From assembly GCA_964016885.1 (NCBI GenBank), contig OZ024743.1:244590001-244654000 (forward strand): a stretch of 64,000 nt of DNA, written 5' to 3'. The notes beneath the pieces are model-generated. The model was not told the origin of the DNA, made no database searches, and was given only the letters and a program-made list of their open reading frames with translations. This document shows, piece after piece, positions 6,881 to 7,957 of this stretch (the stretch's first letter is position 1; each line of letters starts with the position of its first letter). Position numbers and translations under genes: made by a program. The stretch comes from Eledone cirrhosa. Lineage: Eukaryota.

Positions 6881-7957
6881 AAAACAAATAACGAAACGAA
6901 ATTAAATTTCGTTTCGCTTCTAACTCACTTTTGTATGACTGACGCTTAAACAATTAAGTTAAAGTGTACATCTACATATGTATACGGAAGTATTAGTATG
7001 CATATAAATACACACATGTATACATATGTACATGTACTCAGCTTTTCACTAGACACTTTACAGTGAGTGTCAGCTAGTCTGTATGTAACCACACAGACGG
7101 ACCGGGTTTTAGAGTCATACGGGTTTTCAAGGAAACACATTTCCTCTATTCTCCAGAGGGCCAGACAGGAATATTGGACTAGTTTCGATGTTATTACATC
7201 TCATCAGCAATATTTACCCATCTTCCGGCTTCTCTGGAGAATTGTAAAAGCACATATCGTTATATGCTTTTTCTATGAAAATTAGTAGTGGGTAGACTAA
7301 TTTGCATAGAACGTGAGTCATTGTACGCAATGACTCACGTTCTATGCAAATTAGTCTACCCACTACTAATTTTCATAGAAAAAGCATATAACGATATGTG
7401 CTTTTACAATTCTCCAGAGAAGCCGGAAGATGGGTAAATATTGCTGATGAGATGTAATAACATCGAAACTAGTCCAATATTCCTGTCTGGCCCTCTGGAG
7501 AATAGAGGAAATGTGTTTCCTTGAAAACCCGTATGACTCTAAAACCCGGTCCGTCTGTGTGGTTACATACAGACTAGCTGACACTCACTGTAAAGTGTCT
7601 AGTGAAAAGCTGAGTACATGTACATATGTATACATGTGTGTATTTATATGCATACTAATACTTCCGTATACATATGTAGATGTACACTTTAACTTAATTG
7701 TTTAAGCGTCAGTCATACAAAAGTGAGTTAGAAGCGAAACGAAATTTAATTTCGTTTCGTTATTTGTTTTTATCGTTTCCGCTGAACCGGTGCGTACAAT
7801 GACTCACGTTCTATGCAAATTAGTCTACCCACTACTAATTTTCATAGAAAAAGCATATAACGATATGTGCTTTTACAATTCTCCAGAGAAGCCGGAAGAT
7901 GGGTAAATATTGCTGATGAGATGTAATAACATCGAAACTAGTCCAATATTCCTGTCT
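6881..7957. mobile_element. Non-coding HHR repeat family E: 469-bp tandem unit plus ~440-bp inverted copy (retrozyme/pLTR-like)
   Basis: Arms 6881-7323 and 7328-7770 are reverse complements, and 7328-7487 repeats at 7797-7956. HHRs at 7170-7214 (-), 7437-7481 (+) and 7906-7950 (+). Confidence 0.88.
7437..7481 (+). ncRNA. Minimal type I hammerhead ribozyme, family E (copies at 7906-7950 +, 7170-7214 -)
   Basis: AATATTG CTGATGA GATGT-AATA-ACATC GAAA C-TA-G TC CAATATT: perfect helices I and II, palindromic ACTAGT helix III, GUC cleavage site. Confidence 0.92.

Follow-up and report, generated by a model that had tools for sequence, protein, structure and literature searches.

The 469-bp repeat that occupies positions 6878-7962 of the window (the whole 64,000-nt stretch of DNA analysed), hereinafter family E, is probably a young non-LTR retrozyme present as a two-armed copy within (TA)n DNA, where it would have been inserted by a borrowed Penelope-type enzyme that primes on both strands and likely copies a single 469-nt circle. 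The family combines several traits that are characteristic of non-LTR retrozymes: its tandem units are short and non-coding, every unit carries a type I hammerhead, the copies are dispersed and have target duplications, and the predicted circle is strongly self-paired. The earlier note had proposed a recently active, non-autonomous retrozyme, and this view holds up: dispersed copies are 99-100% identical, multi-unit arrays are found, and a coding partner in cis is missing.

The window copy is flanked by (TA)n on both sides (Table 1). Its palindrome centre lies at about 7325 and is followed rightwards by a partial repeat; the period, from 7328 to 7797, is 469 bp, as previously claimed. Compared with the unit at 7328-7796, both the left inverted arm (unit positions 1-446) and the partial second unit (1-161) contain 0 mismatches, in agreement with the partial-tandem plus inverted layout and near-identical arms described in the earlier note, although the tandem portion of this copy amounts to only 1.3 units. 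About 206 nt are missing from the last unit (unit positions 162-367), with a 2-nt microhomology at the deletion. The left end (6878) corresponds to the family's site B and the right end (7962), despite the 206-nt deletion, to its standard site A. The longest stop-free frame on the circular 469-bp unit encodes 84 aa, which bears out the proposed lack of coding capacity. Elsewhere in the window, a short palindrome with two arms, whose ends lie about 45 nt apart in (TA)n (6569-6797), is likely to be a further PLE-type insertion; a U6 match (33765-33871, + strand; 79.5 bits) directly follows a TA run and is probably a retrocopy; and a tRNA-like match (17207-17278, - strand) scores 42.4 bits, above the Rfam threshold.

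Table 1. Features of the family E copy and of related elements in the window
Feature	Positions	Strand	Remark
(TA)n target, left flank	6798..6880		
Left arm of roughly one unit, with its outer (3') end at site B (unit position 446)	6878..7327	-	no mismatch in 446 nt
Hammerhead copy 1, minimal type I	7170..7214	-	
Junction between the arms, with 2 nt of microhomology	7322..7329		
Reference unit, full 469 bp; circular permutation of the predicted RNA monomer	7328..7796	+	
Predicted hairpin; its A residues are recurrently A>G in other copies, unedited here	7341..7379	+	
Hammerhead copy 2; predicted cut after 7474	7437..7481	+	
Putative start site A of reverse transcription (unit 372-377); passed without a stop in this copy	7699..7704	+	
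Perfect hairpin (12 bp) in the interval separating sites A and B; 14 nt lie between its end and site B	7735..7759	+	
Putative start site B of reverse transcription (unit 446); passed without a stop in this copy	7773..7773	+	
Partial second unit (1-161) with internal deletion; outer end at site A	7797..7962	+	
Hammerhead copy 3; predicted cut after 7943	7906..7950	+	
(TA)n target, right flank	7963..8210		
Truncated copy of a young Hydra-type PLE family; candidate enzyme source, detached from the element	11428..12934	-	
Family J, a relative (about 60% identity) that has the same type of hammerhead and conserves site B	19123..19654	-	

The three hammerhead cores of the window copy (+7444, +7913 and -7207) are identical and carry the complete set of catalytic bases (CUGAUGA, GAAA and the GUC cleavage triplet), so that the three minimal hammerheads originally reported are intact. 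Helix I consists of 7 bp, helix II of 5 bp with an AATA loop, and helix III of 2 bp within the palindrome ACTAGT. The Rfam family HH9 matches positions 7894-7966 with 38.7 bits (E 2.9e-6), below its gathering score of 52. Hammerheads of this minimal type are described for Penelope-like elements (PLEs) and may cleave as dimers (PMC7761336, accessible text). Family J shares the AATA loop and ACTAGT with family E, to which it is about 60% identical; it is a true relative, as the suggestion of a diverged homologue had implied. In a comparison of seven sequences from family E, its 90% identical sister subfamily and family J, which represent only about three lineages, helices I and II covary: 6 of the 17 pairs change on both sides and 93% of the cells pair. 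The predicted fold of the circular monomer has an energy of -159.5 kcal/mol, compared with -94.9 +/- 5.3 kcal/mol for 40 shuffled sequences (z about -12), with 70% of the bases paired and the hammerhead left free. The isolated hammerhead folds unremarkably (z -0.7), and its minimum-energy fold lacks helix III. A motif search of the unit detects no minus-strand hammerhead. The conserved ATGCAAAT sits in a hairpin and may have a structural role; an internal promoter of the snRNA type, with the octamer and proximal element of host U2 genes, was considered but is not supported, given that the U2 upstream elements have no significant match to the unit. The octamer is absent upstream of all three host U2 loci examined; one U2 gene tandem array (G000:C3:307.35-307.45 Mb, 2.2-kb period) has no octamer in the 320 nt upstream. 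Further hammerhead-like cores belonging to several other repeat families are found in the window at 8220, 13567, 18832, 33262, 44463 and 61574 (+) and at 13190, 44311 and 51337 (-).

A search of the 3.0-Gb genome with the exact 41-nt hammerhead yields 1,366 matches compared with 0 for the reversed control, so the occurrence of the motif is not due to chance; a pattern spanning family E, the sister subfamily and family J yields 36,201 matches (control, 0). Most copies of the 469-base repeat form mirror-image arrays. The 68 loci analysed comprise the window copy, 37 top-match loci, which are biased to long young arrays (39 of the 723 candidates were scored), and 30 loci taken in order along contig C1. 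L157 was left out as a duplicate: L156 and L157 (G000:C1:55.97-55.99 Mb) are identical insertions 17.7 kb apart, a segmental or assembly duplication. Arrays reach 14.7 units per arm, and one array, which was handled separately, contains at least 80 units (L179-L182, G000:C1:95620986-95658499); it belongs to an older subfamily, begins at site A, shows higher-order repeats and is a retrozyme turning into a satellite.

The ends of the arms are fixed. Among the 109 arms of at least 150 nt at the 68 loci, site A (unit positions 369-378) and site B (445-446) account for 53 ends each and the remaining 3 lie elsewhere, so that 106 arms use one of two sites about 70 nt apart. Moreover, 41 of the 42 two-armed loci with both ends classed, a set that does not include the window copy, have one arm ending at each site (24 of the 25 top-match and 17 of the 17 position-ordered loci) and thus display the inverted 5' segment and the tail from two start sites that typify PLE-type insertions. 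The sole exception, L031, has one end that derives from a 91% identical sister arm. One-armed loci number 21 of the 68. TA-rich DNA adjoins 93 of the 106 standard ends, and target duplications of about 9-12 bp are readable at four loci whose flanks are complex (L155, L170, L173 and L178); the inner joins are scattered and mostly show microhomology of a few bases. In vitro, a PLE protein has been shown to extend both strands, with synthesis beginning at two internal sites that give rise to the genomic tail (PMC11167929, accessible text). By analogy, the two fixed ends of family E are the footprint of a Penelope 'tail', common also to an intact Hydra-type element in this genome. Neither these ends nor the A>G marks discussed below were among the claims of the earlier note.

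Given that the ends, the inversion and the target all resemble those of PLEs, and that L057 contains a PLE frame directly upstream of the unit, the repeat might be viewed as a pseudo-LTR (pLTR) that a coding PLE has left behind in 5'-truncated copies, a view that we regard as very improbable. L057 fails as a parent PLE: the insertion there is nested, as indicated by the fact that all 29 other copies of its PLE are devoid of the unit and continue into their own 3' region. At L152 and L171, the PLE remnants upstream are parted from the unit by TA runs and unrelated DNA. The length of the arms, 52 of 109 of which exceed two units, also argues against a pLTR, as does the finding that sequence running through site B arrives at the motif of the next unit in 6,126 of 7,161 read-throughs (the 18 misses among the first 100 read-throughs listed all come from one tandem array with a changed motif). 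None of the 68 loci contains an RT plus GIY-YIG frame between pLTRs, the arrangement of an autonomous PLE, and no copy among them is a pLTR of a coding PLE, the state that, if universal and coupled with a lack of unit-length RNA, the earlier note had held to refute its reading.

The insertion footprint suggests that family E is mobilised by a Penelope-type enzyme, probably of the Hydra clade, for which the particular family can be proposed as a candidate only. A young PLE family with 821-aa open frames, many copies of which are open, ends in (TA)n at two sites separated by about 85 nt, the second of which has a hairpin about 15 nt ahead of it. The candidate at L080 shows the features of the Hydra clade, namely the RW motif, DKT, the CxCx5C linker, a C-terminal endonuclease lacking CCHH, and the (TA)n target, as read by eye against the accessible text of PMC8557442; a Pfam search with the Hydra-type candidate gave no relevant match. 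A hairpin ending about 15 nt before site B is found in family E, family J and the Hydra-type PLE; the other end families surveyed, including a third PLE family whose flanks entered only this survey, mostly do not have it, and it therefore serves as a lead only. No pLTR homology to the unit was detected in the two Hydra-type families with flanks compared, and the hammerheads located close to PLE frames in 1.05 Mb of loci yielded none either, so that this family is put forward as a candidate source of the enzyme. The dominant Hydra-type family was rejected as the sequence parent: homology to the unit is not detectable, and its hammerhead is of another kind. The window contains remnants of Hydra-like PLEs from three or more families (4034-5205, 11428-12934 and 16164-16946, all on the - strand), and protein searches of the genome returned 50,640 and 66,080 first-look candidates, many of which have long open frames. 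A GC-richer GIY-YIG-like frame (8879-9628, - strand) apparently belongs to another PLE clade.

ADAR makes A>G marks in paired RNA, and clustered A>G changes are a conspicuous feature of these repeats, with most of them located in the sister subfamily. At the sister locus L230, all 16 complete units are identical over both arms; L230 and L232 differ by three clustered A>G changes in a stem and one inserted base. At unit position 22, A>G is found in 107 units genome-wide, compared with 5 for A>C/T and 2 for T>C at the paired base. The position-22 change maps to 18 loci among the 100 units listed; at all 14 loci examined, one of which (L235) is family E proper, G is present in every covering unit, on several haplotype backgrounds. 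With position 22 excluded, 18 distinct changes are fixed exclusively at the 13 sister loci; 15 of them are A>G, and T>C does not occur. L245 carries ten private A>G changes in both arms, one of them in the hammerhead core (A9). Fixation in all units of both arms is what is expected if one edited monomer was copied repeatedly, and the marks are likely to reflect A-to-I editing of a single RNA monomer that was copied many times in that or an earlier generation. These loci were chosen for one A>G change, and most of the evidence of editing comes from the sister subfamily; in family E proper, single-unit changes are not enriched in A>G (19, compared with 22 T>C), which also makes up only 3 of the 12 private fixed changes. 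Tolerance of G-U pairs in stems, via selection, could be an alternative source of the A>G bias. A common A>G set is found at L243, L246 and L248, which lie in separate places on two contigs, and suggests that an edited copy founded a lineage.

We infer from the architecture of the copies that the template was a circular 469-nt RNA. No indels near the predicted cut site were found in 253 unit alignments, and only 1 of 98 inner ends coincides with this site, compared with 2.3 expected (ends falling on the arbitrary unit boundary were excluded). Such seamless passage, together with the lack of an inner-end pile-up, argues against cut linear monomers re-copied by template jumping. This route, or its variant in which each arm derives from its own RNA molecule, appears distinctly unlikely: at L040, L045, L150 and L153 one arm has a fixed variant that the other arm lacks, and the PLE protein is predicted to be a dimer (PMC11167929, accessible text), but subfamily alleles show no linked switch at the cut site. 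A private variant is present in every covering unit of both arms at 7 of the 40 two-armed young loci; other loci share variants among some units only, and L165 alternates two haplotypes.

An uncut linear multimer transcribed from an existing array, used by the same enzyme at the same start sites, with uniformity resulting from young sources and DNA-level exchange, is a rather unlikely alternative. In vitro, hammerhead mutations left PLE insertion unaffected and unprocessed RNA was the main template (PMC11167929, accessible text); multimeric RNAs exist in axolotl (PMC7229834); and minimal hammerheads may cut poorly. Only 1 of 9 predicted retrozymes cleaved in vitro according to the accessible part of a preprint (10.64898/2026.07.22.740005). 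DNA-level turnover is seen at L067 and in the array of at least 80 units, so the homogeneity of arrays is not purely a signal of copying, and the arm-limited variants fit a multimer as well. Nevertheless, the recurrence of one and the same A>G set from unit to unit in both arms requires a one-unit bottleneck in some generation; the ten private changes of L245 and the absence of any polymorphic site at L230, C18 and L236 point the same way, and only one variant common to some of the units is in register between the arms. At the other extreme, a DNA-level satellite or foldback element that moves with no RNA step is compatible with the palindromic layout and with the long arrays showing higher-order repeats, but this explanation is hardly credible given that the ends differ by a fixed offset, the inner joins are variable, the A>G changes are strand-polarised and the hammerhead helices covary.

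Under the circular-template reading, tandem units would be transcribed and the hammerhead would cut the transcript, probably as a dimer because helix III has only 2 bp, after which the monomer would be ligated to a circle and sometimes edited by ADAR. A Penelope-type enzyme would nick both strands of TA-rich DNA, start at site A on one strand and at site B on the other, and copy one to many laps, with the two cDNAs joining by microhomology; some arrays would later expand at the DNA level. On balance, we lean slightly towards regarding the insertion as a fossil of two-sided rolling-circle reverse transcription, in which one Penelope complex, priming on both target strands, starts at two non-interchangeable sites of a single circular, sometimes ADAR-edited RNA, such that the edits appear in every unit of both arms, found lineages and can alter the ribozyme core (A9 in L245). 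This model is testable in vitro, since the start sites are predicted exactly, open frames of a candidate enzyme exist in the same genome and the one-site-per-arm rule is strict. The same rule bears on the origin of Penelope inversions and tails, and A-to-I editing is suggested to feed heritable variation into a mobile RNA. In the accessible parts of the literature examined, the movement of animal retrozymes, the borrowed enzyme and the circle as template are proposed, not shown.

The closest known systems are the non-LTR retrozymes of coral, mussel and axolotl (PMC7229834, PMC7761336; accessible text for these and the sources below), which, like family E, have a short non-coding tandem unit with one type I hammerhead each, low GC, a self-paired predicted circle, co-occurrence with PLEs and larger target duplications. 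The 469-nt unit of family E exceeds the 150-450 bp given for metazoan retrozymes, its hammerhead is of the minimal PLE type, unlike theirs, and mirror-image arms, two fixed ends and fixed A>G changes are not described for them in the text of PMC7229834. No published report of a two-armed, two-site, edit-marked footprint was found in a survey of titles and abstract openings that covered few subscription journals and no preprint supplements. Circular RNA has been demonstrated for metazoan retrozymes (PMC7229834), whereas the circle of family E is predicted from its DNA. The involvement of PLEs has been proposed for retrozymes (PMC7229834), the repeats of which show no motif pointing to their enzyme (PMC7761336). 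The preprint 10.64898/2026.07.22.740005 likewise advocates a PLE origin and mobilisation in trans, on the basis of co-occurrence and pLTR homology in Xenopus, with arrays attributed to local amplification; for family E, in contrast, no homologous pLTR was found in the families compared, but the insertion footprint is of the PLE type.

Among the PLEs themselves, Poseidon of Anolis (PMC11167929) resembles family E in its two internal start sites, the extension of both strands, AT-rich targets and a stem-loop at the start. It is, however, autonomous and coding, its tail is 30-40 bp compared with about 70 in family E, and in vitro its start sites do not differ between the strands, whereas the arms of family E differ in 41 of 42 loci. 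PLEs of the Hydra clade (PMC8557442) share (TA)n targeting, the hammerhead and the combination of partial tandem, inversion and tail, but encode an RT and a GIY-YIG endonuclease, neither of which is encoded by family E; the Hydra-type family in this genome further differs in its hammerhead and unit sequence, as described above. Thus, as far as the accessible literature goes, the class to which family E probably belongs, the non-LTR retrozymes, is known, and its two-armed, two-site, edit-marked footprint appears to be new.
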